A stretch of 64,000 nucleotides of DNA, from the NCBI GenBank assembly GCA_038217075.1, contig JBBQPR010000004.1:13487-77486 (forward strand), given 5' to 3'. Within the stretch, counting starts at the first letter, position 1, and each line of letters begins with the position of its first letter. The stretch is from Sphingomonadales bacterium (GTDB lineage Bacteria; Pseudomonadota; Alphaproteobacteria; Sphingomonadales; Sphingomonadaceae). The notes under the pieces are model-generated. The model saw nothing but the letters and a program-made list of their open reading frames with translations. It searched no databases and was not told where the DNA came from. A program made the position numbers and the translations under genes. Positions 6,646-63,818 of the stretch are shown in pieces.

Positions 6646-6678
6646 GCCAATTCCTTGCGCTCTCTCCCCGCACGGGCG

Positions 6679-31291: not shown

Positions 31292-31422
31292 ATGGCGCCT
31301 GCGATAGGCGACAAGCGACCGATTGTCACCAGCGCACACCTTGCCGCACCATGGCAGCATCCGGGCTCGCCGGCTGGACAGTTCGGCAACCGCTTGGCTA
31401 TCAGGGTCGCAAAGGGGAACCC

Positions 31423-43479: not shown

Positions 43480-44262
43480 CTATTGCATGAACCATCCATG
43501 GCTGACGACAATGGATTGGCCGGTCAGCGCATTGGTCGGAAAGCCGGCAAGGAACACCGCAGTCCGTGCCACATCGTCAACCGTCGTGAACTCGCCATCG
43601 ACTGTTTCCTTCAGCATGACGTTCTTGATGACATCGGCGTCGCTGATGCCGAGTTCCTTGGCCTGTTCCGGAATCTGCTTGTCCACCAAGGGCGTGCGGA
43701 CAAAGCCGGGGCAGATCACATTGGCGCGCACGCCATGTTTCGCGCCTTCCTTGGCGACAACCTTGCACAGGCCGATCAGGCCATGCTTGGCGGTGACATA
43801 GGCACTTTTCAGCACCGATGCCTCCTTGGAATGCACCGATCCCATGTAGATGACGCTGCCGCCGCGGCCCTGCTTGTACATCTGCCGCACGCAAGCGCGG
43901 GTGGTCAGGAACGCACCATCGAGATGGATGGCCAGCATCTTCTTCCAGTCGGAAAACTTATAATCTTCGATCGGCGCGACAATCTGGATACCGGCGTTGG
44001 ACACCAGTATATCGATGCCGCCGAACTTTGCGATCACGGCTGCGATACCCGCTTCAACCTGCTCCTCGCTGGTCACGTCCATCGCCACGCCGATGGCGCG
44101 CGTGCCGGTCGGGTCGAATTCGGCGGCGACGGCATTGGCACCATCGATGTTCAGATCGGCGATCGCCACCATCGCGCCATTTGCCAGGAATTCCTTGGCG
44201 ATATCCTTGCCGATACCGCTCGCCGCGCCGGTCACAACCGCCACCTTGCCTTGCATTTCCAT
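43480..44262 (-). CDS. bdhA: 3-hydroxybutyrate dehydrogenase
   Basis: [17 protein letters not shown]...[17 protein letters not shown]. Confidence 0.92.
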
Positions 44263-44264
44263 GT

Positions 44265-45008
44265 TCAATCCTTTGCCAGATAATCGTGAACGACATGGCC
44301 TAGCCCCAGCGTAAGGTCGGCCAGAATATGGGTGGCGCCCAGAATTTCGAGCACCGGCAGTTCGGCAACCGGCGCCAGCGCATGGCTGATCAGCGTCAGC
44401 GCCGCGGGTCCGGTCCAGGCGCCCTTCAACTCGATATCGGTCAACGCATATTCGACGATTTCGCAGATGCGCGGGCTGCCATCGACATGCGGGATGATCT
44501 TCAACAGGAAATTGGGCGCCTGCATCCCGGCCAGCACCGCCGCATGGTCGGCCTGATGATGCTTGTAACCCATCGACGCCATCGCCACCGGCACGCCGTG
44601 ATAATCCAGCCGCCCGACCAGCGCATCGATATTGGCGACCAGCGACGGCGCGGCGAGTTTTTTGGGAAAGCCCCACAACTCCCGGCCCCCGGCGATCGGC
44701 GGATGATCGTTCAGGAACATGCAGTGCGTATAACTGCCCTTGCGGCCTTCAAAGCTGACCGGGATGACCTGGCCGGCTTCGGTGTAATCGCCAAAACCGG
44801 TTGAATCGGGCATCCGGATGAATTCGAACTTGACGATCGGATCTGTGATTTCCAACGGCTCCGGCACCAGCGCGCGCAGTTTTTCCGGGTCGGTGCGATA
44901 GCTGATGATCAGATATTCGCGGTTGACGAACCGATACGGCCCGGGCGGAAACGCCGGGCTTGTCAACGGCATCGCAAAGGCATTGGCGACCACATCGGCG
45001 ACCTTCAC
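44265..45008 (-). CDS. adc: Acetoacetate decarboxylase
   Basis: [31 protein letters not shown] (Schiff-base Lys). Confidence 0.92.
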
Positions 45009-46165
45009 GCGCGCTTTCCCTTGTTTACATCGGGCTTGCCGGCGTTGTGCGCAGCGCCCCGGCTCAGATCATAAACAACGGTCCCCAACTGCATGGGCTC
45101 CGTCAGCCAGGTGGCATCATGGACGGTATTTTCGACATCCTGCACCCCGGCCAGCCAATGTTCGGCCATGGTCGCCCGGCTGAATTCATAGTCCTTGGCC
45201 TGCCCTTCCCATACCTTGTCGCGATAGATCAGCTGGGCAATGGTGATCCGGCTTTCATGGGCAATACTGGCCAGGGTGCGAACCTCTGGGCTGTCCCGCA
45301 ATTCCGCCGGCAATTTTGCGACCAGGCTGTGAAACGCCGCCCTCGCCCGGTTCAATCTGACATGGCTGTCGGTGTTCATCCGGGTTCGGCTGGAAAAACG
45401 GATATCCTTCACCCGCTCATCCGCTTCGGCAATCGTCTGCGGCATCGGCCCGCGCGACGGGAACAGATCGACCTGAAAGATCATCAGATCGCAGCGCGGC
45501 GCCATATCGAGCACATATTCGAGCGGCGTGTTCGAAACCAGCCCGCCATCCCACCAATATTCGCCATCGATTTCCACGGGCGGAAATCCAGGCGGCAGCG
45601 CGCCCGATGCCATGATATGTTCGGGGCCAAGCCGCTCCTTCGCCGTGTCGAAATAACGAAAATTGCCGGTCTCGACATTCACCGCGCCGACCGACAGCCG
45701 GGTCGGACCATTGTTGAGCAGATCCCAATCGATCAACCGCTCCAACGTCGCGCGCAACGGCGCCGTGTCATAATAACCCAGCGGCCCTTTCAGCCATGGC
45801 ATCACCGGCGGCCAGACCGGCTTGAAAAACCCCGGCGCCCCCTGTGACATCGTCATCGCCGCCGCCGCTTCATTCCATTGGCGACGAAAGCCGTCGCCCA
45901 GCATCGGCGCCGCAGATGTGACGCCAGAGGTCACCAGTTCCCAAAACTCGGTCAACCGCTCGACACGATGGCCAACCGGGTTGCCGGCGATAATCGCGGC
46001 GTTGATGGCACCAATCGAAATGCCGGCAACCCAGTCAGGGCACAGATCGGCTTCATCCAGCGCTTCGAAGACGCCGGCCTGGTAACTGCCCAGCGCGCCG
46101 CCACCCTGCAACACCAGCACGCAATGGGCTTTGTTCGCATCTTCGACGTCGGCACCCATCGTCAC
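45005..46165 (-). CDS. Patatin-like phospholipase / esterase
   Basis: GGGALG, GISIG, DGG, KDYEFS. Confidence 0.9.
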
Positions 46166-46286: not shown

Positions 46287-46736
46287 TCATTCCTCGACCT
46301 GTATCAGTTCGACATCAAAGATCAGCGTCGCGCCAGGCGGAATATCGGCCCCGGCGCCACGATCGCCATAGCCTGCCGACGCCGGAATGATCAGCGTGCG
46401 CTTGCCGCCGACTTTCATGCCAACCACGCCCTCGTCCCACCCCTGGATGACCTGGCCATAGCCAAGCGGGAACGCAAAGGGCTGGCCACGGTCGCGCGAC
46501 GAATCGAACTTCATGCCGCGCTTGCCATCGACATACAGCCAGCCGGTATAGTGCACGGCGACATATTTGCCGGCCATCGCCTCCGCACCCGTGCCGATTT
46601 CGACATCGCGCACGCTGGTCCCGCTGGGCAGCACGACCGCAGGCGGCGTCGGCACCGTCGTCACCGCGGCGGCCGGCGCACTCGCCAACATGGCCGCTGC
46701 TGCGGCTGCCATTGCAACGCCTGGAATCGCGCTCAA
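46287..46736 (-). CDS. Exported FKBP-type peptidyl-prolyl isomerase (likely has its own internal start)
   Basis: VHYTG.L, FDSS.DR..PF.F.LG...VI.GWDEG, AGYG..G....IPP.ATL.F.VEL; AGGAG (46744-46748) 7 nt before TTG 46736; alternative ATG at 46754. Confidence 0.85.
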   Translation of the reverse strand: MSAIPGVAMAAAAAAMLASAPAAAVTTVPTPPAVVLPSGTSVRDVEIGTGAEAMAGKYVAVHYTGWLYVDGKRGMKFDSSRDRGQPFAFPLGYGQVIQGWDEGVVGMKVGGKRTLIIPASAGYGDRGAGADIPPGATLIFDVELIQVEE

Positions 46737-47540
46737 ATCCTGTCTCCTGTCCATCTCCACCGCCGGGGACAACCCGAGCCGGTGCCTGAAAAATCCGATC
46801 GTCCGCGTTTCCGCTTCTTTACCAGGCCCGCTTTCGGGAAGATGAATGGTCAGCACCGAATGCGGCGCCATGCCGGTATCCTTGCGGGCATCTTCGTCCT
46901 TCAGGTCGATCCGTTCGAACCGGGCACCGAATTCATCGGCATAACGATCGAACCGTGCATCGGGCACAAAGGCATCGCTGGCATAGCGCAGGCCCAACAG
47001 GCTCAGATCCTCGTTTTCAAACCGCGCCCGCGCACAGGCGATCTCGTGTTCCGAAACGTCGATCGCGCCCTTCTTGCCACCCCGCAGCGGCAAGGAAGGC
47101 TGCGACAGCACCGGCGCGATTACCGCCGGTTCGGTCATCATCGCCAGCGCGAAGCCGCCGGTAAAGCACATGCCGACCGCGCCCACGCCCGGCCCGCCGC
47201 ATTCGGCATGGGCATGGCGGGCGAGCGCGCGCAGCCAATCGACAATCGGGCTGGATTTGCCGCCCGACCAAACGCTGAATTCCCGGCGGATGCAGATGTT
47301 GGTGATGATGGTGCGCAAGGCATAGGCCTTGGTCGCGGGCTTGCCCGGCGTGCCGAAAAGGCTGGGCATGAACACGGTCATGCCGGCATCGACCAACCGG
47401 TCGGCGAATTCGACCACCAGCGGGTGCAGGCCCGGCACCTCATGAATGACGATAACCGCCGGCCCGCTGCCGCGCCGATACACCGGCCTTGTAAACGGTT
47501 CGGCGGTGAAATTGGAAAGCTGGTAATCGTGCAACGGCAT
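46287..47540 (-). CDS. Dienelactone hydrolase family domain (47540 to ~46770) continuing in frame, with no stop, into an FKBP
   Basis: HEVPG, GMCFTGG nucleophile elbow, D.FVP, HSVLT, FFRHRL; the reading frame continues to the FKBP. Confidence 0.8.
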   Translation of the reverse strand: MPLHDYQLSNFTAEPFTRPVYRRGSGPAVIVIHEVPGLHPLVVEFADRLVDAGMTVFMPSLFGTPGKPATKAYALRTIITNICIRREFSVWSGGKSSPIVDWLRALARHAHAECGGPGVGAVGMCFTGGFALAMMTEPAVIAPVLSQPSLPLRGGKKGAIDVSEHEIACARARFENEDLSLLGLRYASDAFVPDARFDRYADEFGARFERIDLKDEDARKDTGMAPHSVLTIHLPESGPGKEAETRTIGFFRHRLGLSPAVEMDRRQDLSAIPGVAMAAAAAAMLASAPAAAVTTVPTPPAVVLPSGTSVRDVEIGTGAEAMAGKYVAVHYTGWLYVDGKRGMKFDSSRDRGQPFAFPLGYGQVIQGWDEGVVGMKVGGKRTLIIPASAGYGDRGAGADIPPGATLIFDVELIQVEE

Positions 47541-47786
47541 CGCTGTGTCCCCAACGACCGCCACGGCCGCTTTCGCCAATGGATATCCCGCCATGGCGCA
47601 GCCGTCACCAGCGTAAATCGGCCCGAGCCGGGCCGTCAGCTTTTGTGTGCCCCCTGCCACAACAACCTGCTTCCGCTTACCGCAATATTGCCGCATCATT
47701 ACGGGCAAGGGCAGTCGTATATGCCCAGCGTCAGACAGGAACCGGTGCGGCAGCCTCGGCATGCGCCGGCAGGGGAGAACATCGTC

Positions 47787-48776
47787 ATGCAGACCACACG
47801 CAGGCAAGCCATCGCCGGCATCGCCGGCATCGCCGCCACCACCATGCTCGCCGGCCGCGCCGCCGCCGCCGTGACGCCGAAACTGGGCAGCACATCAAAG
47901 ACACTCTATTGGGTCGCCAGCGTCACGCCGTGCGACAAATCCGGCAAGTTCGATCCCGGCGCGATGGCGTCGATCATGCAATGGCACAAACAGGCCGGCG
48001 CCGATGGCGTTGTCATCCTTGGCACCTCGGGCGAATTCCCGTCATTCTCGGTCGCCGAACGCAAGCTGGTCGCCGAAACCGCCTTCAAGCACCGCAACGG
48101 CCTCAACATCATCATCGGCCCCGGCACGTCGAACAGCCCGGAAACCATCGATCTGGCGAAGCACGCAGAGGCCAATGGCGCCGATGGCCTGCTCGTCATC
48201 CCGCCCTTTTATTTCAACGCGCCGCCGGTCGAAGGCCTCACCGATTACTACAAGCGCCTGTTCGACAGCGTCGGCACCCCGATCAACCTCTACCATATCC
48301 CCGGCACCAGCGAGGTACCGATCAGCATCGAATTGCTGAAGAACCTGTCCGGCTACCCGCAACTCGCCGGCATCAAGGATTCGAGCGGCAATGCCGAAGG
48401 CTATACCGCCTTTGTCGAAGCCATGCCGGCGCTCAACATGCGCTGCGGCACCCAGAACAACCTGGAGATCGCGCTGAACCACGGCATGGGCACCATCCTC
48501 GCCGATGGCAATAATTTCAGCGCAAAATGCGCCGATATCTTCAAGGCCTATCACGCCGGCGACGATTGGAACGCCGCCATCGGCCGGCTGCGCGCCGCCC
48601 AGAAAATCATGCGGGAAACCAACGCCGGCGCCAACACCTATGCCGCCATGAAATATGTGCTGTCGCTGGAGATGGGCGGGCCGGAAATGTACGCGCGCAC
48701 CCCCTATCCGCAGCTCACCGATGAACAAAAGGCCTCGATCAGGGCGGGCCTCGCACGGGTCAAGGCGCTCGCCTGA
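47787..48776 (+). CDS. DapA/NanA-family class I aldolase/lyase with Tat signal peptide
   Basis: TTRRQAI + hydrophobic core + AAA; GTSGE, PPFYF, LYHIP, GIKDSSG (catalytic Lys); GGGGAG RBS. Confidence 0.85.
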   Translation: MQTTRRQAIAGIAGIAATTMLAGRAAAAVTPKLGSTSKTLYWVASVTPCDKSGKFDPGAMASIMQWHKQAGADGVVILGTSGEFPSFSVAERKLVAETAFKHRNGLNIIIGPGTSNSPETIDLAKHAEANGADGLLVIPPFYFNAPPVEGLTDYYKRLFDSVGTPINLYHIPGTSEVPISIELLKNLSGYPQLAGIKDSSGNAEGYTAFVEAMPALNMRCGTQNNLEIALNHGMGTILADGNNFSAKCADIFKAYHAGDDWNAAIGRLRAAQKIMRETNAGANTYAAMKYVLSLEMGGPEMYARTPYPQLTDEQKASIRAGLARVKALA

Positions 48777-48814
48777 ACGGGGCGAAGGCGATCAGCAAAC
48801 GGGGGTCCGGAACG

Positions 48815-50881
48815 ATGAAACTGCACAACAACAAGATCGCGCTCGCCATGCTTTTGCTGGCCGCCAGCCCGGCGGCATTGGCGCAAATCAACGGCGCGCC
48901 CGCCGCCCGCAACACCGGCCCCGGCACCATGAACTGGCCGACCTATAATGCCGATCTCGCCGGCAGCCGTTATCTGCCGCTCGATCAGATCAACGCCGGC
49001 AATTTCAAGGATCTGGAGGTCGCCTGGCGCTTCAAGACCGACATGTTCGGCAGCCGCCCGGAATACAAGCTCGAAGGCACCCCCCTCGCCGTCGATGGCG
49101 TTGTCTACATGACAGCGGGCACCCGCCGCGCCGTCGTCGCGCTCAACGCCGTAACGGGTGAACTGCTGTGGTCCTACAGCCTCCACGAAGGCAAGCGCAG
49201 CGCCGTGTCCCCCCGCGCCCTGTCCGGCCGTGGCCTTGCGTATTGGACGGACGGCAGCAAGCGCCGCATCCTCTACACCACCATCGGCTACCGCCTGATC
49301 AGCCTCGATGCCGACACCGGCCAGCCCGATCCGGATTTCGGCGATCATGGCAGCATCGACCTGAAACAGGATTGGGACCAGCAGATCGACGACCTGACCA
49401 CCGGCGAGGCCGGCGCCCATTCCGCCCCCGCCGTTTCCGGCAACACCATCATCATCGGCGCCGCCTTCCGCGAAGGCTTCACCCCGATCAGCCGCAACAA
49501 TACCAAGGGCTATGTCCGCGCTTTCGACGTGCGCACCGGCAAACGCCTGTGGACCTTCCACACCATCCCCAAAAAGGGTGAATTCGGCTATGAAACCTGG
49601 CTGCAGGGCTCGGCCGAAACCACCGGCAACGCCGGCGTCTGGACCCAGGTTTCGATCGATCCCGATCTCGGCCTTGCCTATCTCAACGTCGAATCCCCAA
49701 CGTCCGACTTTTTCGGCGGCCGCCGCCCCGGCCCCGGCCTGTTCGGCAACAGCATCGTCGCGGTCGATCTGAAAACCGGTGCCCGCCGCTGGCATTACCA
49801 GCTCATCCACCACGAAATCTGGGATCTGGATAATTCATCGGCGCCGCTGCTGATGAACGTCAGCGTCGATGGCAAGCCGCGCAAGGTCGTCGGCGTGCCC
49901 TCCAAACAAGGCTTTTTCTACGTCCTCGATCGCGCCACCGGCGTCCCCGTCTGGCCGATCAAGGAAACCAAAGTGGCGAAGGGCAAGGTGCCGGGCGAAT
50001 GGTATTCACCAACCCAGCCCATCCCGACCAGACCCGCCGCCTATGGCCGCAACGGCTATAGCGAAAGCGATCTCATCGATTTCACGCCCGAATTAAAGGC
50101 CAAGGCGCTCGCCGTCGTCAGCCGCTACGATCTTGGCCCGGTCTACACGCCGCCCATCGTTTCGACACAGGCCAAGATCGGCGTCATCAACAATTGGGCA
50201 CAGGGCGGCACCAATTGGCCCGGCGGCTCCTTCGATCCCGAAACCGGCATCGCCTATCTTTACGCCTGTGGCACCTGCATCTCCTCGACCGGGCTCCAGC
50301 CCGGGCCGAAATCGCTGACCGATCTCGATTGGGTCGTCGGCGTCGATGGCCAGCCGGTCAGCATGATCAAGGGCCCCGGCGAGGGTGCCGGCGCCGACAG
50401 CCCGGCAACGGCACCGCCCAGCGCCGGCGCCGGGCCACCGCGCCTCGCGGTCGATGGCCTGCCGCTGATGAAGCCGCCCTATGGCACGATCAGCGCCATC
50501 GACATCAACACCGGCACCATCAAATGGCAGATCGCCCATGGCGAAACGCCGGATTTCGTGCGCAACAACCCGGCGTTGAAGGGCCTCACCATCCCCCGCA
50601 CCGGCCAATCGACGTACCAGATCGGCACGCTGGTCACCAAATCCCTCGTCATCGCCGGCGAGAACCAGGTGACCACCACCCCCGATCACCCGCGCGGCGC
50701 CATGCTGCGCGCCTATGACAAGCAGACCGGCGCGGAGGTCGGCGCGGTGTTCATGAACGCCCCGCAAAGCGGTTCCCCGATGACCTATTCGGTGAACGGC
50801 AAGCAATATATCATCGTTGCAACCAGCGGCGGCATCAGCTCGGGCGAATATGTCGCCTATACGCTGCCCAACACCCGATGA
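48815..50881 (+). CDS. Soluble periplasmic PQQ-dependent dehydrogenase (glucose/quinate DH-like)
   Basis: Signal ending ALA; RY.PL.QI, GTPL, RGLAYW, G.VRAFD..TGK.LW.F, HHEIWDLD, GG.NWPG, PMTY. Confidence 0.9.
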   Translation: MKLHNNKIALAMLLLAASPAALAQINGAPAARNTGPGTMNWPTYNADLAGSRYLPLDQINAGNFKDLEVAWRFKTDMFGSRPEYKLEGTPLAVDGVVYMTAGTRRAVVALNAVTGELLWSYSLHEGKRSAVSPRALSGRGLAYWTDGSKRRILYTTIGYRLISLDADTGQPDPDFGDHGSIDLKQDWDQQIDDLTTGEAGAHSAPAVSGNTIIIGAAFREGFTPISRNNTKGYVRAFDVRTGKRLWTFHTIPKKGEFGYETWLQGSAETTGNAGVWTQVSIDPDLGLAYLNVESPTSDFFGGRRPGPGLFGNSIVAVDLKTGARRWHYQLIHHEIWDLDNSSAPLLMNVSVDGKPRKVVGVPSKQGFFYVLDRATGVPVWPIKETKVAKGKVPGEWYSPTQPIPTRPAAYGRNGYSESDLIDFTPELKAKALAVVSRYDLGPVYTPPIVSTQAKIGVINNWAQGGTNWPGGSFDPETGIAYLYACGTCISSTGLQPGPKSLTDLDWVVGVDGQPVSMIKGPGEGAGADSPATAPPSAGAGPPRLAVDGLPLMKPPYGTISAIDINTGTIKWQIAHGETPDFVRNNPALKGLTIPRTGQSTYQIGTLVTKSLVIAGENQVTTTPDHPRGAMLRAYDKQTGAEVGAVFMNAPQSGSPMTYSVNGKQYIIVATSGGISSGEYVAYTLPNTR

Positions 50882-50906
50882 CAGCGCCTTCAGGACCCCT
50901 TCCCCA

Positions 50907-51362
50907 ATGAACCGCACCACCATCCTCGCCGCCACGCTCGGCACCATCCTCAGCCTTGCGGGCGGCGCCGGGCTCGCCCAACCCGCGCGTTCGGTCTGGG
51001 ATGGCATCTACACCGCCGAACAGGCCGATCGCGGCGCTGCGGCCTATGTTCAAAGCTGTGGCCAATGCCATGGCGTGACGCTTGGCGGCACCGGTGAAGC
51101 CCCCGGCCTGACCGGCGGCGAGTTCGTCTCCCATTACGATCAATTGACCGTCGGCGACCTCTTCGACCGCATCCGCACCACCATGCCGCAAAGCGCGCCG
51201 GCGACGCTCGCCCGCGATCAATATGCCGACATCCTGGCGTTCCTGCTCAAATCCAACGGCTTTCCCGCCGGCAGCACGGCGCTCGACAAACGCAGCGAAG
51301 TGCTGGCCACCATCGCCCTGCAGGCCCAGAAACCCACCGGCGCCAGCCAGGCCGGAAACTGA
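50907..51362 (+). CDS. Monoheme cytochrome c
   Basis: Signal peptide; YT..QA.RG, CGQCH, MP axial Met. Confidence 0.9.
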   Translation: MNRTTILAATLGTILSLAGGAGLAQPARSVWDGIYTAEQADRGAAAYVQSCGQCHGVTLGGTGEAPGLTGGEFVSHYDQLTVGDLFDRIRTTMPQSAPATLARDQYADILAFLLKSNGFPAGSTALDKRSEVLATIALQAQKPTGASQAGN

Positions 51363-51378
51363 CAGAAAGGCCACTGCG

Positions 51379-52461
51379 ATGCCCGACAAACGCCTGTTGC
51401 TGATCGCGCTGCTCGCCCTTGCGGCGCCCGCCTTCAGCCTCGCCTCTGCCCAGCAGCGCGGCCCCACCTACACCGTCGATCAACTGCCGCCGCCGGGGCC
51501 GCTCAAACCCGACCCCAACGCCTATCCCAACCCCTACAAACTCGAAACCGGCTTTCTGAAAATGCCCGCCGGCCGCACCATGGGCTCGACCAGCGCTGTT
51601 GCGCTCGACAGCAAGGGCAATATCTGGGTGGCCGAACGCTGCGGCGCCAACAGTTGCGCCGACAGCCCGCTCGATCCGATCATGATGTTCGATCCCCAGG
51701 GCAATTTCGTCCGCGCCTTTGGCGGCGGCATGATGCTGTTCCCGCACGGCTTTTCGATCGACGCCGGCGATAATGTCTGGGTCACCGATTCCCGCGTCGC
51801 CAACGGCCGCGGCGGCCAGGTGTTCAAGTTCAGCCCCGATGGCAAATTGCTGCTCACCCTCGGCAAGGCCGGCGTCGCGGGCGGCTCCCCCGATGCCTTC
51901 ACCGAACCCAATGCCGTCATCGTGGCGCGCGACGGCAGCATCTATGTCGCCGATGGCCATACGCCGGACAAGGGCAACGCCCGCATCGCCAAATTCGACG
52001 CCAGCGGCAAATTCCTGCTCGATTTCGGCAGCCACGGCCATGGTCCCGGCCAGGTCGAAGTGCCCCACGGCCTCGCCCTCGATTCAAGCGGCCGGGTCTT
52101 CGTCGCCGATCGCTGGAACAACCGCGTCTCGATCTTCTCGCCCACCGGCAGGTTCATCACGGCATGGACCCAGTTCGGCCGGCCCAGCGGCATCTTCATC
52201 GATGCAAGGGACCGGCTGTATTCCACCGATTCCGAATCCCGCAACCCGGTCGGCTATGGCTACAACCCCGGTTGGCACCGCGGCGTCCGCATCGGCAGCG
52301 CCCGCACCGGCAAGGTAAGCGCCTTCATCCCCGATCCTGACCCGATGCCCGATGCCGGCGCCACCAGCGGCGGCGAAGGCCTGTGGGTCGCCCACGATGG
52401 CACCATCTACCTCGGCGAAGTCAAGGAACGCGCTATCGTCCGCTACCGCCGCCAGCACTAG
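51379..52461 (+). CDS. Exported NHL-repeat beta-propeller (PAL-like)
   Basis: Signal peptide; repeated P.G..D..G..V.D blades (FPHG, PNAV, VPHG, RPSG). Confidence 0.85.
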   Translation: MPDKRLLLIALLALAAPAFSLASAQQRGPTYTVDQLPPPGPLKPDPNAYPNPYKLETGFLKMPAGRTMGSTSAVALDSKGNIWVAERCGANSCADSPLDPIMMFDPQGNFVRAFGGGMMLFPHGFSIDAGDNVWVTDSRVANGRGGQVFKFSPDGKLLLTLGKAGVAGGSPDAFTEPNAVIVARDGSIYVADGHTPDKGNARIAKFDASGKFLLDFGSHGHGPGQVEVPHGLALDSSGRVFVADRWNNRVSIFSPTGRFITAWTQFGRPSGIFIDARDRLYSTDSESRNPVGYGYNPGWHRGVRIGSARTGKVSAFIPDPDPMPDAGATSGGEGLWVAHDGTIYLGEVKERAIVRYRRQH

Positions 52462-53751: not shown

Positions 53752-54017
53752 GCGCGCACCCCCCTTCCCCCACAGGTCACACCATCTGACAGCGTGAGCC
53801 CGCCACAGCACCCCCGGTCAATGGCTGGCGGCGCACCTGCCTCGCAATTGCCTGCAGACACTACCCAATATGCGCCGTCGTGCCATCCAAATAGCCAGCC
53901 GCCTATCCGCAATCCTGCCAGCGCTGGCCCTCGATTTAGGACATTCTGGCAAAGAAATGATTCCAGATTCGCGCCTGTTGCTGCGCGAGCCTTCGGCAAT
54001 GCCTTTTGGGGAAGCCT

Positions 54018-57000
54018 ATGACGACCGGTGCCTATGATCGCTTTGGCGGTGAGTTCCTCGTCAACACGACGATTGCGGGCGCCCAACTCGATTCCGCGCT
54101 CACCGCGCTTGCCGGCGGCGGCTTCGTCATCAGCTGGACCGACAACAGCGCATCGGGCGGCGACACCAGCGGCGCCAGCGTCCGCGCCCAGATGTACGAC
54201 GCCAACGGCACGGCGGTCGGCGGCGAATTCCTCGTCAACACCGCAACATCCGCCGGCCAGTTGCAACCCAGCATCACCGGCCTTGCGTCGGGCGGCTTCG
54301 TCGTCAGCTGGACCGACAACAGCACCCAGGGCGACACCAGCAGTTCCGGCATCAAGGCGCAGATCTATGATGCCAGCGGCGCTGCGGTCGGCGGTGAATT
54401 CGTCGTCAACACCGTCACGCAACTGGCCCAGTCCCAGCAAAGCATCACCGCCTTGTCGTCCGGCGGCTTTGTCGCCACCTGGACCGATGCCAGCGGCCTG
54501 AAACCGGACAACAAGGGCACCGGCATCAAGGCGCAAGTCTTTGATTCCACCGGCCACAAGATCGGCGCCGAATTCCTCGTCAACACCACCATCACCGGCA
54601 GCCAGCAATTCTCGTCCGTCACCGCGCTCGCAACGGGCGGCTTTGTCACCACCTGGACCGACGGCAGCGGCCAGAACGGCGACAACAGCGGCAACGGCGT
54701 CAAGGGCCAGATCTTCAATGCCACCGGCATGAAGGTCGGCACGGAATTCCAGGTCAACACCATCACCGCGCAAACCCAGGACCAATCGAGCGTCACCTCG
54801 CTCAGCAACGGCAATTTCGTCGTCACCTGGCGCGATCTCAGTCAGGTCGACGACACCAGCGGCGCCGGCGTCAAGGCGCAGATCTTCAGTTCAAACGGGC
54901 AAAAGATCGGCGGCGAATTCCTCGTCAACGCCATGCAGATCAACACCCAGGACAATCCGACCGTTACCGGCCTGGCCGGCGGCGGCTTCGCGGTCAGCTG
55001 GCGCGACAACAGCGCGCTCATAGGCGACAGCAGCAGCTTCGGGGTGAAAATCCAGGTCTTCGACGCTGCGGGCAGCAAGGTCGGCACCGAATTTCTCGCC
55101 AATACAACCACACAGAACAGCCAGGAACAGCCCAGGATCACCGCCCTCGCCTCTGGCGCCATCGTCGTAAGCTGGACCGACTACAGCCAGCAGGGCGGCG
55201 ATTCGAGCGGCACCGGCATAAAGGCGCAGATTTTCGCCCCCAGCAGCCAGTCGATCACAGACATCGCGATCAGTTCGACCATGCTGGCCGAAACATCGGT
55301 GCAGAACCTGTCGGTCGCGACGCTCAGCGCCAATGGCGCGCTCAATGCCGCGCACAGTTATCAACTGGTCGATGATTCAACCGGCGGCGCCTTTGCCATC
55401 ATCGGCGATCGGCTCGTTGTCATCGACAGCACGAAACTGGATTACGAAGTCTTCCAGAACGCCGATGTGACCGTGCGCGCCACCGACAATTTCGGCAATG
55501 TTTTCGACAAGATCATCAGCCTCGAAATCACCGATTCCGTCATCGAAGCGCGTTATTCCGGCAGCGCCGACATCCTTGAAAACACCGCCACCAGAAACAA
55601 CCAGCAATCACCCGCGGTCGCATCGTTGGGCGCCGGCGGCTATGTCGTCACCTGGTCCGACAACAGCGGTTTCGGCGGCGACACCAGCAGCAACGGCATC
55701 AAGGCGCAGTTGCACGACGCGCAGGGCAACCGCATCGGTCTCGAACTGTCGGTCAACACCACCATCGCCGGCAGCCAGGACCATCCGGCTGCCGCGTCGC
55801 TGGCATCGGGGGGCTTTGTCATCACCTGGGCCGACGCCAGCGCACAGGGCGGCGACACCAGCGGTTATGGCATCAAGGCGCAAATATACGATAGCGCCGG
55901 CGGCCGGGTTGGCGGCGAATTCCTCGTCAACACCGCCACCGCCGGGGCCCAGAACGCCCCCAGCGTCGCAACATTGGCAACAGGCGGCTTCGTCGTCACC
56001 TGGACCGACGCCAGCCAGACCGGCGGCGATACCAGCAGCACTTCGATAAAGGGCCAGGTCTTCGATGCGCTGGGCAGCGCCATCGGCACGGAATTCCGCG
56101 TCAATTCCTCGACGCTGAATGGGCAGGACAGTTCATCCGTGACCGCGCTCGACAGCGGCGGCTTTGTCGTCACCTGGCGCGATAACAGCGGACAGGGCGG
56201 CGATTCCAGCCGGGACAGCGTCAAGGCGCAATTGTTCGACGCCAGCGGCAACCCTGTCGGCGCCGAAGTGCTGGTCAACACCGAAACCGCCAACAGCCAG
56301 CAGGTGCCGGTCGTCGCCGGGCTGGATACCGGCGGTTATGTCATCGTCTGGGCCGACAGCAGCGGCAGCGGCGGCGACAATGATTATTTCGGCATCAAGG
56401 CGCAGATCTACGATGCGGCCGGCAGCCGCGTCGGCGGCGAAATCCTGGTCAATACAACCATTGCGGGCGGCCAGCTCCAGCCAACCGTGACAGCGCTGGA
56501 TTTCGGCGGCTTCGTCATCGGCTGGGCCGATTACAGCGGCGTTAATTCCGAACAGGGCACCGCCGGCATCAAGGCGCAGATGTTCGACGATTTCGGCGAT
56601 CGCGTCGGCAACGAAATCGCCGTCAACACCGAAACGCTTGGTGTTCAAGCCGAACCCCGGATCGCGCTGCTGCCCGATGGCGGCTTTGTCATCGCCTGGA
56701 CGGATTACAGCGGCCAGGGTGGCGATGCGTCCGGCACCAGCGTCAAGACCAAGCTGTTCACGCCCCTGCCCAACCAGGGCCCGCCGCCGCACATCATCGC
56801 CGTAACCGACACGCTCGACGCAACCGAGGACACCCCGGCGCAATTCACCGCGGCCACCCTTACGCTCAACGATCTTGATGCAAGCAACAGCCCGCTCACC
56901 GTCACCGGCGTCTCTGCGGTTTCGGGCGGCAGCGTGGTGCTCAACCCCGATGGCACGATCGATTTCAACCCCGATCCCAATTTCGCCGGGCGCGCCGTGT

Positions 57001-58553
57001 TCAACTATACGGTCGTCGACACCGATGGCTTCACCGCAACCGGGCGAGTCAACGTCAACGTCGCCAACACCAATGATCCGCCGGTCGGCGTCGATGATCA
57101 CATCACCATCACCCAGAACAGCAGCAGCATCGCTGCATCGGCGCTGCTGGCCAACGATATCAACATCGATCCCGGCGACAGCCTCAGCATCACCGCGGTA
57201 TCGGCCGCCACCGGCAACGGCATCGCGCTGACCCTCAACAACGGCAGCATCACCTTCAATCTGGGCAGCGCGTTTGTCGCGCTCGGCGCCGGCCAGTCGG
57301 TCACCGACAGCTTCGCCTATACCCTCACCGACAGCTTCGGCCTCACCTCGACGGCTAATGTCACGCTGACGATCAACGGCCTCAACGATGCGCCGGTGAA
57401 CCTTGCCCTGACGGGTGCCAGCGTCGATGAAAACGCCGCCAACGGCACCATCATCGGCAACCTGACCGCCAGCGATCCGGATGCTGGCGATACCCTCACT
57501 TATTCGCTCACCGACAACGCCGGCGGCCGCTTTGCCGTCGATGCCACCACCGGCGTGCTCAGCGTCGCCGACGGCAGCCTGCTGGATTTCGAAACTTCGC
57601 CCACCCAAACCATCGTCAGCCGCGCCACCGATGCCAATGGTGCGTTCGTTGAAACCAGCTTCGTCATCGCGCTCAACAATCTGCCGGAACCGATGTTCTG
57701 GATGGGCGACAATGGTGCCAACGTCTTTGCGGCGCCTACCAACGATTTCTGGACGATCAGCGGCTTTGGCGGCAACGACACGATCACCGGCAACGCCAGC
57801 AGCGACACGATCTCGGGCGGCACCGGCAATGATGTGCTCGATGGCGGCGCGGGTGCCGATTTCCTATATGGCGGCACCGGCAACGACATCTTCTTTGTCG
57901 ATAATATCGGTGACAAGGTCATCGAATATGCCGGCGAAGGCAGTGATCTCGTCTATTCGAGCGTCAGCTACACGCTCGACGTCAATGTCGAAAACCTGAC
58001 CCTGACCGGTACCGGCGACATCAACGCCACCGGCAACGACACCACCAACACCATCAACGGCAATGCCGGCAACAACATCATCGACGGCGGTGACGGCAAG
58101 GATTTCCTGCTCGGCAATGATGGCAATGATTTGATCATCGGCGGCACCGGCAATGACACGGTGCTCGGCGGCAACGGCAACGATACGCTGATCGGCGGTG
58201 CCGGCGTCGATCAATTGACCGGCGGCGCGGGCGCCGACACCTTTGTGTTCGACAGCCTGACCGTCACAGCCGATCGCGACATCATCAAGGATTTCACCCA
58301 TGGCGTCGACAAACTCGCCTTTTCCGAAGCGACGTTTGCGGCCTTTGCCGGCACACCGACGGGCGATCTGCCCGCCGCGGCCTTCCTCATCGGCAGCCAG
58401 GCAACCACCGCCGATCAGCACATCATCTACAACAGCGGCACCGGTGGGCTGTTCTATGATCCCGATGGCGTCGGCGGCCTCGCCCAGATCCAGATCGCCC
58501 AGATCAACATCGGCACCACCGTCACCTATCAGGACATCCTGCTTATCGGCTGA
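54018..58553 (+). CDS. RTX-type T1SS substrate / adhesin: two 7-repeat blocks, cadherin/Ig-like domains, RTX nonapeptides
   Basis: 14 ~58-aa repeats (GGEFLVNT..Q..P....L..GGFVV.W.D...GIKAQ.FD..G); LDYE/LDFE cadherin motifs; GGxGxD repeats; no signal peptide. Confidence 0.9.
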   Translation: MTTGAYDRFGGEFLVNTTIAGAQLDSALTALAGGGFVISWTDNSASGGDTSGASVRAQMYDANGTAVGGEFLVNTATSAGQLQPSITGLASGGFVVSWTDNSTQGDTSSSGIKAQIYDASGAAVGGEFVVNTVTQLAQSQQSITALSSGGFVATWTDASGLKPDNKGTGIKAQVFDSTGHKIGAEFLVNTTITGSQQFSSVTALATGGFVTTWTDGSGQNGDNSGNGVKGQIFNATGMKVGTEFQVNTITAQTQDQSSVTSLSNGNFVVTWRDLSQVDDTSGAGVKAQIFSSNGQKIGGEFLVNAMQINTQDNPTVTGLAGGGFAVSWRDNSALIGDSSSFGVKIQVFDAAGSKVGTEFLANTTTQNSQEQPRITALASGAIVVSWTDYSQQGGDSSGTGIKAQIFAPSSQSITDIAISSTMLAETSVQNLSVATLSANGALNAAHSYQLVDDSTGGAFAIIGDRLVVIDSTKLDYEVFQNADVTVRATDNFGNVFDKIISLEITDSVIEARYSGSADILENTATRNNQQSPAVASLGAGGYVVTWSDNSGFGGDTSSNGIKAQLHDAQGNRIGLELSVNTTIAGSQDHPAAASLASGGFVITWADASAQGGDTSGYGIKAQIYDSAGGRVGGEFLVNTATAGAQNAPSVATLATGGFVVTWTDASQTGGDTSSTSIKGQVFDALGSAIGTEFRVNSSTLNGQDSSSVTALDSGGFVVTWRDNSGQGGDSSRDSVKAQLFDASGNPVGAEVLVNTETANSQQVPVVAGLDTGGYVIVWADSSGSGGDNDYFGIKAQIYDAAGSRVGGEILVNTTIAGGQLQPTVTALDFGGFVIGWADYSGVNSEQGTAGIKAQMFDDFGDRVGNEIAVNTETLGVQAEPRIALLPDGGFVIAWTDYSGQGGDASGTSVKTKLFTPLPNQGPPPHIIAVTDTLDATEDTPAQFTAATLTLNDLDASNSPLTVTGVSAVSGGSVVLNPDGTIDFNPDPNFAGRAVFNYTVVDTDGFTATGRVNVNVANTNDPPVGVDDHITITQNSSSIAASALLANDINIDPGDSLSITAVSAATGNGIALTLNNGSITFNLGSAFVALGAGQSVTDSFAYTLTDSFGLTSTANVTLTINGLNDAPVNLALTGASVDENAANGTIIGNLTASDPDAGDTLTYSLTDNAGGRFAVDATTGVLSVADGSLLDFETSPTQTIVSRATDANGAFVETSFVIALNNLPEPMFWMGDNGANVFAAPTNDFWTISGFGGNDTITGNASSDTISGGTGNDVLDGGAGADFLYGGTGNDIFFVDNIGDKVIEYAGEGSDLVYSSVSYTLDVNVENLTLTGTGDINATGNDTTNTINGNAGNNIIDGGDGKDFLLGNDGNDLIIGGTGNDTVLGGNGNDTLIGGAGVDQLTGGAGADTFVFDSLTVTADRDIIKDFTHGVDKLAFSEATFAAFAGTPTGDLPAAAFLIGSQATTADQHIIYNSGTGGLFYDPDGVGGLAQIQIAQINIGTTVTYQDILLIG

Positions 58554-59029: not shown

Positions 59030-60337
59030 CTATTTCTCCCGGAACGCGTTGTCCCGCAACTTGGTCACCGGGTTCAGAATATAGGACAACACCGAACGCT
59101 TGTGGCCCAACAGATCGACCTCGGCGATCATCCCGGCGCCCACCGGCAACAGCATGCCGTCCCGCGCCTTCAACCCCGCCTGATCGGTCCGCACACGCAC
59201 CTGGAAATGCGTTTCCCCGGTGCGTTCATTCACCACCGCGTCGGGCGAAATCCGCTCGACATGGCCGCTCAACGTCCCGTAGATCGATGAATCATAGGCC
59301 GTCAGCTTCACGATCGCCTTTTGCCCGGTACGCACGAAACCGATATCCGCCGGCCGCACATCGGCATCGATCACCAGCGTATCGCCGCCCGGCACCACCT
59401 CCACCAACGGTTCGCCCGGCCGCACCGATCCGCCGATGGTATTGACCAGCACGCGGTTGACCGTGCCGGCAATCGGCGCGCGCAATTCGGTGCGCTCCAC
59501 CCGGTTTTTCAACGACGGCAGGCTGGCCGATTGGCTGGCCAGTTCCAGCCGCGCCGCCGCCAGCGTATCCACCGCCTGCGACCGATATTTGCCATTGGCG
59601 GCGCGCAGCCCGGCATTGGCCTCGGCAATCGACGCCCGCGCCCGGCTTACGGTTTGCGCCGCCCCCGCCTCGGCGGCACGCGCCTGTGCCAATGCCGACC
59701 GGGCACGATCCAGCGCGATACGCGGCTCGATGCCCTTTTCGACCAGCGGCCCCATCAAATCCGCCTCCCGCGCCGCCTGTGCCCGCGCCTCCTGCCGCAC
59801 CGCCAGCATGCTTTCCGCCTCGGCCAGCGCCCGGGTCGCGCCATCGATCCGGGCGCTCTCGCTCGCCGTCGCTGCCGCCAGATCGACCCGCCGCGCCGCA
59901 TAGACCAACCGTTCCGCCGCCACCGCCGCCGGCGCCGCCGCCGCCAGCCCCGCCGGAAATTCCGGTGCCGCGCCCCGCACTTCCGCCTCCAGCCTGGCAA
60001 TACGCGCCGCCATCGCCGCTGCATTGGCGCTGGTCTTGCCATAATCGCCATCGGCGCTTTGCGGGTCGAGCCGTAACAACACCTGGCCCGCCTGTACGCT
60101 GTCGCCGGGCTTCACCAGGATCGCTTTCACCACCCCGCCTTCCAGGTTGCTGACCACCTGCAACTGCCGCGACGGCACCACCCGCCCGCCGGCCACCGCC
60201 GTTTCGTCGATCTGCGCCAGCCCGGCCCAGCCCAGCATGGCGACGCTGAACCCGGCGATCGACCACAGCAGCACCCTGGAAGCCGTGGAAGGCTCCATCC
60301 GGTCCGGCAACGATTCAACCGTGGTGGCGAGCGACAT
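59030..60337 (-). CDS. Type I secretion membrane fusion protein (HlyD family)
   Basis: G.VVPS...Q.V..LEGG.V, coiled coil, RAP..G.V, DIGFV, AYD..IYG. Confidence 0.94.
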   Translation of the reverse strand: MSLATTVESLPDRMEPSTASRVLLWSIAGFSVAMLGWAGLAQIDETAVAGGRVVPSRQLQVVSNLEGGVVKAILVKPGDSVQAGQVLLRLDPQSADGDYGKTSANAAAMAARIARLEAEVRGAAPEFPAGLAAAAPAAVAAERLVYAARRVDLAAATASESARIDGATRALAEAESMLAVRQEARAQAAREADLMGPLVEKGIEPRIALDRARSALAQARAAEAGAAQTVSRARASIAEANAGLRAANGKYRSQAVDTLAAARLELASQSASLPSLKNRVERTELRAPIAGTVNRVLVNTIGGSVRPGEPLVEVVPGGDTLVIDADVRPADIGFVRTGQKAIVKLTAYDSSIYGTLSGHVERISPDAVVNERTGETHFQVRVRTDQAGLKARDGMLLPVGAGMIAEVDLLGHKRSVLSYILNPVTKLRDNAFREK

Positions 60338-60350
60338 CGGCGAGTCCTTC

Positions 60351-60425
60351 AGAGCGTGATGGCATTAGATGGGGTCGCCCCGCACGGGTTGCCATGGTGA
60401 TCCGGTCTGATGTCATCATGGGCTA
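60351..60425. repeat. Long palindromic MITE-like element inside the T1SS operon
   Basis: About 24-bp stem GTGATGGCATTAGATGGGGTCGCC / GGTGATCCGGTCTGATGTCATCAT with G-T pairs and one mismatch; AGAGC...CTA ends. Confidence 0.6.
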
Positions 60426-63541: not shown

Positions 63542-63818
63542 CAGGCACAGCGACCCACCGCAATGGCCCGCCGACCTAATCGATAACAACCGTAAACCCA
63601 CCCCTGAACCGTCCCGAATCGATAGCGCAAACCGCCTTCCATGGTCACCAAACCACGCCAGACCGCCGTTTTTGGTATCGCGTTCCAACGGCTTGCATAA
63701 GACACCCGAACGGACATGCTCCGCATGACCCATCCCGGACCCGATTGGCGCGCAGGCGCAGCGAACGCACAACCCGCGCGGTGTCGGCACGATTGCACAG
63801 AATGATGAAGAAAGGCGG

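Follow-up and report, generated by a model that had tools for sequence, protein, structure and literature searches.

A predicted Tat-exported DapA-family protein encoded with a PQQ dehydrogenase, a cytochrome c and a PAL-like propeller in Sphingomonadales: a possible periplasmic oxidation-and-cleavage module

The window analysed here, a 64,000-nucleotide stretch of a Sphingomonadales genome, carries four co-oriented genes on the forward strand at positions 47787–52461, separated by gaps of 38, 25, and 16 nt; coordinates and gaps read from the sequence matched exactly those of the original prediction. The first gene (47787–48776) encodes a 329 aa paralogue of the DapA/DHDPS family, a class I (Schiff-base) aldolase or dehydratase (PF00701, E 2.7e-44), and the second (48815–50881) a soluble eight-bladed PQQ-dependent dehydrogenase of the glucose/quinate/shikimate type, of 688 aa (PF01011, E 2.4e-167). 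They are followed by genes for a monohaem class I cytochrome c of 151 aa (50907–51362; PF13442 and PF00034) and an NHL six-bladed beta-propeller of 360 aa (51379–52461; PF01436, E 1.1e-21), the latter a PAL-like candidate metal-dependent lyase or hydrolase. Export signals were predicted from the sequence on all four products, one of them Tat and the other three Sec-type, which were judged by eye. The window had also been described as lacking a transporter, and this is correct for the immediate neighbourhood but not for its whole length, as an ABC/HlyD type I secretion pair is located at 59–62 kb. That pair adjoins a giant RTX adhesin.

The N-terminus of the DapA-family protein reads MQTTRRQAIAGIAGIAATTMLAGRAAAA/VTPK (the slash marks the predicted cleavage), and its residues 1–28 (47787–47870, forward strand) correspond to a predicted Tat signal peptide, consisting of T-R-R-Q-A-I-A, an Ala-rich hydrophobic region, and AAA ahead of the cleavage site. 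The twin-arginine leader claimed in the original prediction was borne out by comparison of about 120 orthologues. Arginines R5 and R6 were invariant in 24 orthologues of 41–83% identity, essentially all of the approximately 120 best homologues had a leader of the same kind, and so did more distant clusters (33–50% identity) from Pseudomonadota and Acidobacteriota, with the form TRRxFLG in the acidobacterial loci. Among the 150 best representatives of 50%-identity clusters, 14 showed the RR leader, including all the best-scoring matches, and in the full-length ones the GxxGE motif was located at residues 71–86, compared with around 40–50 in the rest. The check for a true start after the leader, in which case the protein would be cytoplasmic and the apparent Tat signal a translated upstream region, makes such a start extremely unlikely. 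An in-frame Met at residue 20 could serve for it; however, orthologues do not conserve this Met, in contrast to the invariant R5 and R6, and the leader varies in sequence and length yet keeps its signal-peptide character in more than 100 orthologues of two phyla. Moreover, the start of cytoplasmic family members is about 35 residues closer to GxxGE, and the first ATG is preceded by a good ribosome-binding site, a Shine-Dalgarno-like GGGGAG found by direct sequence reading at 47772–47777 of the forward strand, 9 nt 5' of the ATG, which supports 47787 as the start codon. The comparative data thus indicate that the Tat leader is real. Of the export machinery, a tatC fragment was found at the end of a contig.

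The DapA-family protein also keeps GTSGE (residues 79–83), Tyr169, and the Schiff-base Lys197, as had been claimed, and K197, Y169, Y142, and the G79–E83 GxxGE motif are invariant across its orthologues. With the DHDPS-NAL superfamily (DHDPS, N-acetylneuraminate lyase, the KDG aldolases YagE/YjhH, the dehydratase KdgD, and the 5-KDG aldolase GudL, a DapA-like protein described as a putative 5-keto-4-deoxyglucarate aldolase (PMC11775122)) it shares the PF00701 TIM barrel, the Lys of the Schiff base, the relay Tyr, and the GxxGE motif that binds carboxylate. In contrast to them, it has a conserved Tat leader, belongs to a separate clade, and scores under every NCBIfam equivalog cut-off, and it differs from DHDPS in having a Thr at the position of Arg138. 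To our knowledge, the characterised members of this superfamily are cytoplasmic. The PQQ-linked, Tat-bearing proteins grouped as one clade (SH-aLRT 98), which on sequence comparison is discrete and always carries the twin-arginine leader, with Cys49, His170, Thr222, and Asn225 as clade-specific invariant residues. The best PDB sequence matches were DHDPS and YagE (E 1e-33 to 1e-27), and NCBIfam, PDB sequence, and paralogue comparisons did not place the clade specifically with any of the characterised subfamilies. Its sequence does not distinguish an aldolase from a dehydratase. A separate housekeeping dapA (308 bits) was found elsewhere in the same genome, so the gene of the module is not the housekeeping one.

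The invariance of the Schiff-base Lys, the Tyr proton relay, and GxxGE argues that catalysis has been retained, and it counts against an accessory role, in which the folded protein would serve the quinoprotein complex as a subunit or chaperone without catalysis of its own and would need Tat because folding or oligomerisation takes place in the cytoplasm. Pre-folded oligomers suit Tat export and the genes for the DapA-like protein and the PQQ dehydrogenase are closely linked, but the DapA-like gene is missing beside many of the orthologous dehydrogenases, and we consider such a role very unlikely.

The PQQ dehydrogenase has a Sec-type signal peptide (residues 1–24) and no membrane anchor. Its match to TIGR03074 covers only the propeller and, at 350 bits, is below the cut-off of 832 bits, and its identity to E. 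coli Gcd is 28% over the whole propeller. Asp337 (in WDLD), Lys364, and Trp276, invariant in 24 orthologues, align with D466, K493, and W404 of Gcd, which shows the same DxD pattern as the WDLD of the module enzyme. In its eight-bladed propeller, its catalytic Asp, and the Lys and Trp that bind PQQ, the enzyme matches the periplasmic quinoprotein systems (PQQ glucose, quinate, and polyol dehydrogenases of Gluconobacter and Pseudomonas, E. coli Gcd, and the PQQ D-lactate dehydrogenase mLDH), which likewise work outside the cytoplasm and pass electrons to the respiratory chain. The module enzyme differs from these in being soluble, with a Sec-type signal peptide in place of the N-terminal membrane anchor, in its score under the TIGR03074 cut-off, and in its probable acceptor, a dedicated soluble cytochrome c instead of ubiquinone. 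The oxidation of D-lactate to pyruvate in the periplasm by a PQQ quinoprotein (PMC13230246) is a precedent for the conversion of a 2-hydroxy acid into a 2-oxo acid; we found no description of such systems coupled to an exported DapA-family enzyme. A soil clade of soluble eight-bladed GDH-like quinoproteins with the DxD motif (WDLD in the module enzyme), named "PQQ-8beta glucose dehydrogenase", has been described in Acidobacteria and Alphaproteobacteria (Voutsinos et al. 2026 preprint, 10.64898/2026.07.10.737718). That preprint notes a neighbouring monohaem cytochrome c as common; it contains 0 occurrences of aldolase, and the sections consulted describe no PAL-like partner for these dehydrogenases. 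The cytochrome c of the module, which begins with a Sec-type signal peptide and has its CGQCH haem site at residues 51–55 (51057–51071), adjoins the PQQ dehydrogenase orthologue in 16/16 alphaproteobacterial and 35/43 other loci with full flanks. Neither pqqC nor pqqE turned up when this MAG and four complete congeners were searched, with no positive control included; PQQ would then have to be scavenged, which weighs against the pathway preferred below.

The NHL protein, with a Sec-type signal peptide, showed a weak PF08450 (SGL) match beside PF01436, and its orthologues are named PAL family by NCBI and sugar lactone lactonase (YvrE) by JGI. The best PDB match of its AlphaFold2 model (pLDDT 87) was peptidyl-alpha-hydroxyglycine amidating lyase (PAL), also a six-bladed NHL propeller (Foldseek E 2.9e-20; VIA Z 35.9, rmsd 2.5 Å, 288 residues aligned, 27% identity). 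SMP-30/gluconolactonase-type lactonases (XC5397, Drp35, xylonolactonase) have six-bladed propellers too, but their scores, compared by overall fold score and identity, were clearly lower (Z 25–26, 10–16% identity). On the predicted model, both fold and sequence identity thus place the propeller nearest to PAL, a zinc lyase, and not to the lactonases, which modifies the original prediction. Pairing a PQQ sugar dehydrogenase with a lactonase would be a logical combination; given the stronger resemblance to PAL, the sugar-lactone scheme fits less well. The residues invariant in the orthologues include H123, H194, H230, R245, E333, R66, R87, and C88/C93. By arithmetic from the alignment ranges reported by the tools and the residue numbering of PAL, we take His123, His230, and Arg245 to stand at the zinc-binding His585 and His690 and at Arg706 of PAL, and its Tyr654 and His786 (the third zinc-binding His) presumably appear as His194 and Glu333. 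In contrast to PAL, the module protein is bacterial, periplasmic by prediction, without a PHM partner, and frequently part of a fusion with cytochrome c, as in 41 of its 120 best homologues.

The neighbourhood conservation set beforehand as a test was analysed in 80 loci found by the PQQ dehydrogenase, the counts referring to the 16 alphaproteobacterial and 43 other-phylum loci with full flanks. All four genes were present in 16/16 of the former, amid differing neighbours; genomes in which the set was seen include Polymorphobacter, Sandarakinorhabdus, and Sphingomonas quercus, besides metagenomes. In the loci L077, L082, L086, and L091 the genes are rearranged but still clustered, in the order NHL<, PQQ>, cyt c>, DapA<. 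In the other phyla, cytochrome c was found in 35 of the 43 loci, the DapA-like gene in 23, a cupin in 20, and NHL in 7. The gene set is thus conserved across phyla despite rearrangements. The fourth gene was either an NHL propeller or an exported cupin, never both together in the loci examined, with the cupin replacing the propeller in many Acidobacteriota. The four-gene unit originally proposed does co-occur elsewhere, but the gene comparisons reduce its conserved core to the PQQ dehydrogenase and the cytochrome c, with the propeller often replaced and the DapA-like gene frequent but dispensable; its absence from 20/43 other-phylum loci means that the dehydrogenase does not need it. We found no description of this four-gene module in the literature consulted.

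The many loci with the dehydrogenase and the cytochrome c but lacking the DapA-like gene, or lacking both NHL and cupin, would also be expected if these two proteins harvested energy in the periplasm as a general-purpose pair and the others were independent exported fellow travellers with no shared pathway. This we regard as unlikely, since Tat-DapA proteins of down to 43% identity still adjoin an orthologous PQQ dehydrogenase, in varied orders and strands. Beside the 43%-identity protein there are, in addition to that dehydrogenase, a cupin, SGL/NHL propellers, and a fusion of cytochrome c with GSDH. Moreover, 22/23 of the other-phylum loci with the DapA-like gene also have cytochrome c and NHL or cupin, and the propeller–cytochrome fusions mentioned above point in the same direction.

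The neighbours in one acidobacterial lineage, where an M61 glycyl aminopeptidase, an M20 peptidase, and an Xaa-Pro-dipeptidase-like amidohydrolase recur beside the module, give a hint of peptide-derived substrates instead, and in Sandarakinorhabdus a related amidohydrolase is located about 5 kb upstream. With a peptide or amino-acid substrate, dehydrogenation would be followed by an adduct of the alpha-hydroxyglycine type or another hemiaminal, from which the PAL-like propeller, or else the cupin, would free glyoxylate, and the DapA-like enzyme would resemble 4-hydroxy-2-oxoglutarate aldolase or pyrroline-4-hydroxy-2-carboxylate deaminase, which are DapA-family enzymes of hydroxyproline/glyoxylate metabolism. 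The structural match, the identity, and the NCBI naming of the propeller favour this; PAL cleaves a C–N bond and releases glyoxylate (PMC6529398). However, the peptidase genes largely reflect synteny inside a single lineage and are missing from most alphaproteobacterial loci, glucose/quinate-family PQQ dehydrogenases are known to act on alcohols, aldoses, and hydroxy acids and not on amide alpha-carbons, and the DapA-like protein resembles the rhizobial megaplasmid paralogues no more than it resembles DapA (29–34% identity). The Glu presumed at the third zinc-binding His also speaks against it, and overall a peptide substrate seems rather unlikely.

The best reading, to which we give slightly less than an even chance, is the periplasmic oxidation and subsequent cleavage of a sugar-like 2-oxo- or hydroxy-acid as the putative substrate; that the four genes are a genuine operon for such a module is held with the same, not quite even, confidence. 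The soluble PQQ dehydrogenase would oxidise a hydroxyl or hemiacetal of a sugar-like, carboxylated or deoxy-keto substrate, probably imported by the TonB-dependent receptor (~975 aa) often encoded directly upstream of the DapA-like gene in relatives, and electrons would flow through the dedicated cytochrome c to the respiratory chain. The labile product (a lactone, hemiacetal, or hemiaminal) may be dealt with by the metal-dependent, PAL-like propeller, which many lineages have tethered to the cytochrome, or by the cupin that stands in for it across many Acidobacteriota. Finally, the Tat-exported DapA-like enzyme would bind the 2-oxo acid so produced through a lysine Schiff base and cleave or dehydrate it to pyruvate-type products, which would be taken up. 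Of the periplasmic pathway first proposed, the uncharacterised, fully exported, and conserved module stands, but the order lactone, lactonase, aldolase does not: no dehydratase is present to convert an aldonate into a 2-keto-3-deoxy acid, so that order works only with a substrate that is already a deoxy-keto sugar. Candidate substrates that would need no extra dehydratase are 2-keto-3-deoxy aldoses such as 3-deoxyglucosone, 4-deoxy-5-keto-uronates from polysaccharide lyases, and 2-hydroxy sugar acids oxidised at C2. The module would include an exported member of an otherwise cytoplasmic aldolase family, and the gene set is kept by bacteria of several phyla.

The four genes of the module lie on the forward strand: a DapA-family gene (47787–48776, 329 aa; PF00701 DHDPS, E 2.7e-44), a PQQ dehydrogenase gene (48815–50881, 688 aa; PF01011, E 2.4e-167), a cytochrome c gene (50907–51362, 151 aa; PF13442 and PF00034) and an NHL propeller gene (51379–52461, 360 aa; PF01436, E 1.1e-21, plus a weak SGL match). 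These ORF coordinates confirm the original observation of four co-oriented genes separated by gaps of 38, 25, and 16 nt. The signal peptides of the PQQ dehydrogenase, the cytochrome c, and the NHL propeller, judged by eye and by conservation, are of the ordinary Sec type. A promoter and terminator scan gave no signal exceeding the shuffled expectation.

Several other genes of the window were noted. On the minus strand, a 506-aa ORF (46287–47807) pairs a dienelactone-hydrolase-like region (residues 115–228) with an FKBP-type prolyl isomerase domain at the C-terminus; the TTG listed as its start overlaps the start codon of the DapA-like gene by 21 nt, so its real start is probably farther in. 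Grouped at 43480–46165 (minus strand) are a short-chain dehydrogenase, the 5′ end of which is over-extended as listed, an acetoacetate decarboxylase (PF06314, E 9e-90), and a patatin-like phospholipase with DUF3734, a trio that may be linked to ketone-body or polyhydroxybutyrate turnover. Finally, a 1515-aa ORF (54006–58553, plus strand) carries bacterial Ig, cadherin-like, and RTX nonapeptide repeats; listed with it are the minus-strand ORFs 59030–60337, 60423–62141, and 62138–63790, and HlyD-family and ABC-transporter genes adjoin it, an arrangement suggestive of a giant adhesin encoded next to its type I secretion system.

Enzymes of the DapA/NAL family are textbook cytoplasmic proteins. 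The N-terminus of the DapA-like protein of the module reads MQTTRRQAIAGIAGIAATTMLAGRAAAA/VTPK, and a ribosome-binding site, GGGGAG, precedes its ATG by 9 nt. Within its leader (TRRQAIA...AAA), the RR pair is invariant among orthologues, as seen for R5 and R6 in a 24-sequence alignment (41–83% identity). The pattern M-x-[TN]-R-R-[DE]-x-L opens essentially all of the ~120 best homologues (62–97% identity), found in Polymorphobacter, Sandarakinorhabdus, Sphingomonas quercus, and numerous metagenomes; past this start, they show a variable Ala-rich hydrophobic stretch, an AxA-like site, and then a mature N-terminus conserved as P[KR]LGSxxKT[LM]YW. The acidobacterial orthologues carry a canonical TRRxFLG. 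An exhaustive search found the RR leader in 14 of the 150 best 50%-identity cluster representatives, every top-scoring match among them, and in the full-length representatives with this leader the GxxGE motif falls at residues 71–86, whereas in ordinary family members it falls at ~40–50. In addition, a quick maximum-likelihood tree placed the Tat-bearing, PQQ-dehydrogenase-linked proteins in one clade (SH-aLRT 98), with the true DapA of the MAG elsewhere.

This conservation in homologues, alignment, clusters, and tree makes a start codon downstream of the leader very unlikely. The protein has all the features by which Tat export is predicted (an S/T-R-R-x-F-L-K-like motif, a hydrophobic region, AxA, and conservation among orthologues), and the twin-arginine leader originally proposed for it is, as far as the invariant RR pair, the ~120 homologues, the TRRxFLG orthologues, the shifted GxxGE, and the clade can tell, a real one. 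The MAG (83% complete, 136 contigs) contains tatC as one fragment only, at a contig end.

The mature part of the protein is covered over the whole TIM barrel by PF00701 (residues 43–321, profile positions 7–285 of 289). The Schiff-base K197, Y169, Y142, and G79-T-S-G-E83 align with the true DapA of the MAG, encoded on a separate contig (C1), and vary little or not at all among 24 orthologues; Cys49, His170, Thr222, and Asn225 never vary within the clade. Among PDB sequences, the protein comes closest to DHDPS and YagE (E 1e-33 to 1e-27). Against TIGR00674, the 4-hydroxy-tetrahydrodipicolinate synthase proper, the protein scores 133 bits, below the cut-off of 206, and the true DapA 308 bits, above it. 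The substrate-binding Arg of DapA, present in the true DapA of the MAG and presumably corresponding to E. coli R138, which we take to bind aspartate semialdehyde, is Thr174 at the aligned position here. The NCBIfam equivalogs for N-acetylneuraminate lyase, KdgD, HpaI-like, and archaeal KDG aldolases gave 70–100 bits against cut-offs of 278–397. From its sequence, then, the protein is predicted to be a catalytically intact DapA-family member outside all NCBIfam equivalogs, compatible with either an aldolase or a dehydratase. A plasmid search with it returned ordinary paralogues only (≤34% identity).

In a public assembly, the 741-aa protein P0138 has a degenerate DapA-like half (GRTSE for GTSGE, and a leader without RR) that runs into an intact orthologue of the NHL propeller, with neither a PQQ dehydrogenase nor a cytochrome in between, possibly a copy of the module that has decayed or been rearranged.

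The PQQ dehydrogenase matches PF01011 over its full length (profile positions 1–595 of 595) and is 28% identical to the membrane-bound E. coli glucose dehydrogenase Gcd across the whole propeller. D337, K364, and W276 align with Gcd D466, K493, and W404, of which the Asp is catalytic and the Lys and Trp contact PQQ; the three aligned residues are invariant in 24 orthologues. Unlike the Gcd family, the protein has no N-terminal transmembrane anchor, and a cleavable-looking signal peptide stands in its place; its match to TIGR03074 (membrane-bound glucose/quinate/shikimate dehydrogenases), 350 bits against a cut-off of 832, starts at profile position 150, past the anchor. It is a member of an abundant clade of soil bacteria, the soluble “GDH-like” PQQ enzymes. 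A WDxD pattern is present, which is read as a lanthanide motif for the soil “PQQ-8beta GDH” clade in a recent preprint (Voutsinos et al. 2026, 10.64898/2026.07.10.737718); since E. coli Gcd is identical there, the pattern gives no conclusion on the metal. The neighbouring cytochrome c has its haem site at C51-G-Q-C-H55 and scores over the cut-off for both PF13442 (33.8 bits) and PF00034 (25.9 bits). A complex prediction for PQQ dehydrogenase residues 25–688 with DapA-like residues 30–329, both as alignments, gave no verdict (score 0.00), which counts neither way on binding.

The grouping of the four genes recurs in other genomes. In the neighbourhoods of DapA-like homologues, they were found together in the same order with differing flanks in Polymorphobacter fuscus, Sphingomonas quercus, one Sphingomonadales MAG, and two metagenome contigs. 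A Tat-DapA at 50% identity, on a metagenome contig with a module like the acidobacterial loci, is followed by a PQQ dehydrogenase, a cytochrome c, and a cupin. One at 43% identity shows the order DapA, cytochrome c, PQQ dehydrogenase, and another at 43% adjoins the orthologous PQQ dehydrogenase, a cytochrome c–GSDH fusion, SGL/NHL propellers, and a cupin. In locus L018, a fusion (5378–6928, minus strand) of a cytochrome c with a PQQ sugar dehydrogenase of the six-bladed GSDH type (PF07995) adjoins the distant Tat-DapA and PQQ dehydrogenase genes, with SGL propellers and a cupin close by, a richer variant of the periplasmic theme.

A genome search with the PQQ dehydrogenase as query turned up 80 loci in Sphingomonadales, Phenylobacterium, many Acidobacteriota, Udaeobacter, and Limnocylindrales, and genes were counted in the loci with at least 3.5 kb on each side of the dehydrogenase. 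All 16 alphaproteobacterial loci have cytochrome c, DapA-like, and NHL genes, and none has a cupin gene. The 43 loci from other phyla include 35 with cytochrome c, 23 with the DapA-like gene, 20 with the cupin, and 7 with the NHL gene; all but one of the 23 DapA-like loci (22/23) also have cytochrome c and either NHL or cupin. NHL and cupin genes were never found in one locus of this set. These counts leave the PQQ dehydrogenase and the cytochrome c as the conserved core, with the Tat-DapA gene as a frequent, dispensable partner and a fourth slot taken by one of two unrelated exported proteins, the NHL propeller or the cupin. As the cytochrome c stays with the dehydrogenase where the propeller is missing, it is most simply the electron acceptor of the dehydrogenase. 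Some loci of Bryobacterales, Solibacteraceae, and Limnocylindrales are rearranged (NHL and DapA on one strand, PQQ dehydrogenase and cytochrome c on the other, in the order NHL, PQQ, cytochrome c, DapA) and stay clustered, which argues for functional linkage beyond mere inherited gene order.

Within the order of the window, the DapA-like gene turned up in five of the 401 genomes sampled, each of them from the genus of this MAG, which is itself among the five. The operon is also carried by the cultured Sandarakinorhabdus limnophila DSM 17366, S. cyanobacteriorum TH057, Polymorphobacter fuscus, P. multimanifer DSM 102189, and Sphingomonas quercus, so that genetics and biochemistry are feasible.

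The first of the two fourth-slot proteins, the NHL propeller, gave a good AlphaFold2 model (pLDDT 87), for which the top match, by both Foldseek (E 2.9e-20, TM 0.70/0.77) and VIA (Z 35.9, rmsd 2.5 Å over 288 residues, 27% identity), was peptidyl-alpha-hydroxyglycine amidating lyase (PAL). The next VIA matches were other NHL domains (Z up to 31.8, with TRIM NHL domains above lactonases); lactonase structures reached Z 25–26, lower than PAL, and the six-bladed PQQ enzymes CcPDH and sGDH, at Z 23.8 and 21.9, fell far under it. Pfam gave no match of the propeller to PF07995 (six-bladed PQQ, sGDH/AA12), and PF08450 (SMP-30/gluconolactonase/LRE-like) scored 33.8 bits over the whole protein against a cut-off of 26.3, yet no single stretch passes. 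The names given to orthologues differ, PAL family at NCBI versus sugar lactone lactonase at JGI. Invariant in the propeller are H123, H194, H230, R245, E333, R66, R87, and the Cys pair in RCGANSC. The active site of PAL consists of a three-His zinc site, a catalytic Tyr, and an Arg; by arithmetic from alignment ranges, H123 and H230 presumably fall at two of the zinc His and R245 at the catalytic Arg, and the third His would correspond to E333 and the Tyr to H194, a mapping that is suggestive at most.

In 41 of the 120 best propeller homologues, the cytochrome c and the propeller form single proteins of 465–516 aa, in which a variable Ala/Pro-rich linker separates the two domains and there is no inner signal peptide; loci L003, L047, and L099 are of this kind and have no separate cytochrome gene. 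Such a recurrent tether implies that the propeller would work near the dehydrogenase–cytochrome pair, and the frequency of the fusion makes a redox role of the propeller conceivable. The cupin (242 aa) has a hydrophobic helix at its N-terminus, and its cupin-like motifs conserve His and Glu; it had no NCBIfam match, an ESM Atlas feature search returned only generic cupin and AraC_binding clusters, and its AlphaFold2 model (pLDDT 45) was too poor for a structure search.

The likeness to PAL also suggests a different substrate class, in which the pathway would centre on peptides or glyoxylate instead of a sugar acid. Peptidase genes beside the module speak for it too: one acidobacterial lineage has an M61 glycyl aminopeptidase, an M20 peptidase, a BNR protein, and a Xaa-Pro-dipeptidase-like amidohydrolase there. 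These neighbours are mostly within-lineage synteny, and we rank the peptide or glyoxylate pathway below one for sugar acids. In the window itself, M61 glycyl aminopeptidase and M13 peptidase genes (31210–33375, plus strand, and 20520–22655, minus strand) lie 14–27 kb upstream of the module; the M61 family adjoins the module in some Acidobacteriota, but its presence so far away in the window is probably a coincidence.

As for uptake, a ~975-aa TonB-dependent receptor is encoded directly upstream of the DapA-like gene in ~10 alphaproteobacterial loci, its place being taken in one locus by an MFS sugar-type transporter; no such receptor gene is directly upstream of the module in the window. A role of the receptor as a PQQ or lanthanide importer was set aside as less probable, given its generic plug and barrel matches in NCBIfam and its size, which we take to be much bigger than that of PqqU-type receptors. 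Regarding the cofactor, no pqqC was found and no pqqE was above cut-off in the MAG (G000) and in four congeners that are 99–100% complete (G358, G356, G205, and G183), a negative result without a positive control; no genome in an 81-genome sample of the order or among 14 controls exceeded the pqqC cut-off. All five genomes encode the PQQ dehydrogenase, which suggests, if the absence is real, that the hosts depend on external PQQ.

The export signals, the conserved catalytic residues, the conserved linkage, and the cytochrome c–propeller fusion together form the basis of a possible pathway for sugar acids. The PQQ dehydrogenase would oxidise a hydroxyl or hemiacetal, reducing the cytochrome c; the PAL-like propeller, or the cupin, would handle the labile product; and the DapA-like enzyme would form a Schiff base with a 2-oxo acid, followed by cleavage or dehydration. 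The order first envisaged, from aldose through lactone and aldonate to the aldolase, breaks down at a gap, as it has no dehydratase making the 2-keto-3-deoxy acid. Two cases would leave no gap. The substrate could already be a deoxy-keto sugar (3-deoxyglucosone, or 4-deoxy-5-keto-uronate from polysaccharide lyases), yielding KDG or 5-keto-4-deoxyglucarate, or the dehydrogenase could oxidise a 2-hydroxy acid at C2. Both halves of the pathway have precedents, namely the conversion of D-lactate to pyruvate by a periplasmic PQQ quinoprotein (PMC13230246) and the DapA-like GudL, reported as a putative 5-keto-4-deoxyglucarate aldolase (PMC11775122).

Tentatively, and as a picture that we consider possible rather than probable, the module would form a periplasmic assembly in which the cytochrome c, often tethered to the propeller, docks on the PQQ dehydrogenase, and the labile oxidation product goes directly to the propeller, from which a Tat-exported class I aldolase takes it over, so that respiratory electrons and pyruvate-type fragments are drawn from deoxy-keto sugars or unsaturated uronates, in a system widespread in soil Acidobacteriota and freshwater sphingomonads. 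If true, it would be the first pathway with a DapA-family Schiff-base enzyme breaking a C–C bond outside the cytoplasm. No relevant paper came up when the literature was searched for DapA-family enzymes that are exported or act in the periplasm, or for the present set of genes, and the word aldolase does not occur in the soil PQQ preprint (10.64898/2026.07.10.737718).

Judging from its leader and active-site residues, the putatively Tat-exported class I aldolase-family enzyme is the unusual element among periplasmic quinoprotein oxidation systems. A discrete DapA clade whose Tat leader is invariant and which is genetically tied to a quinoprotein dehydrogenase in at least two phyla points to extracytoplasmic C–C cleavage or dehydration. 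If the PQQ synthesis genes are truly missing, the hosts would rely on scavenged PQQ. The conserved partners, in turn, offer concrete handles for finding the substrates of the soil “GDH-like” PQQ dehydrogenase clade.
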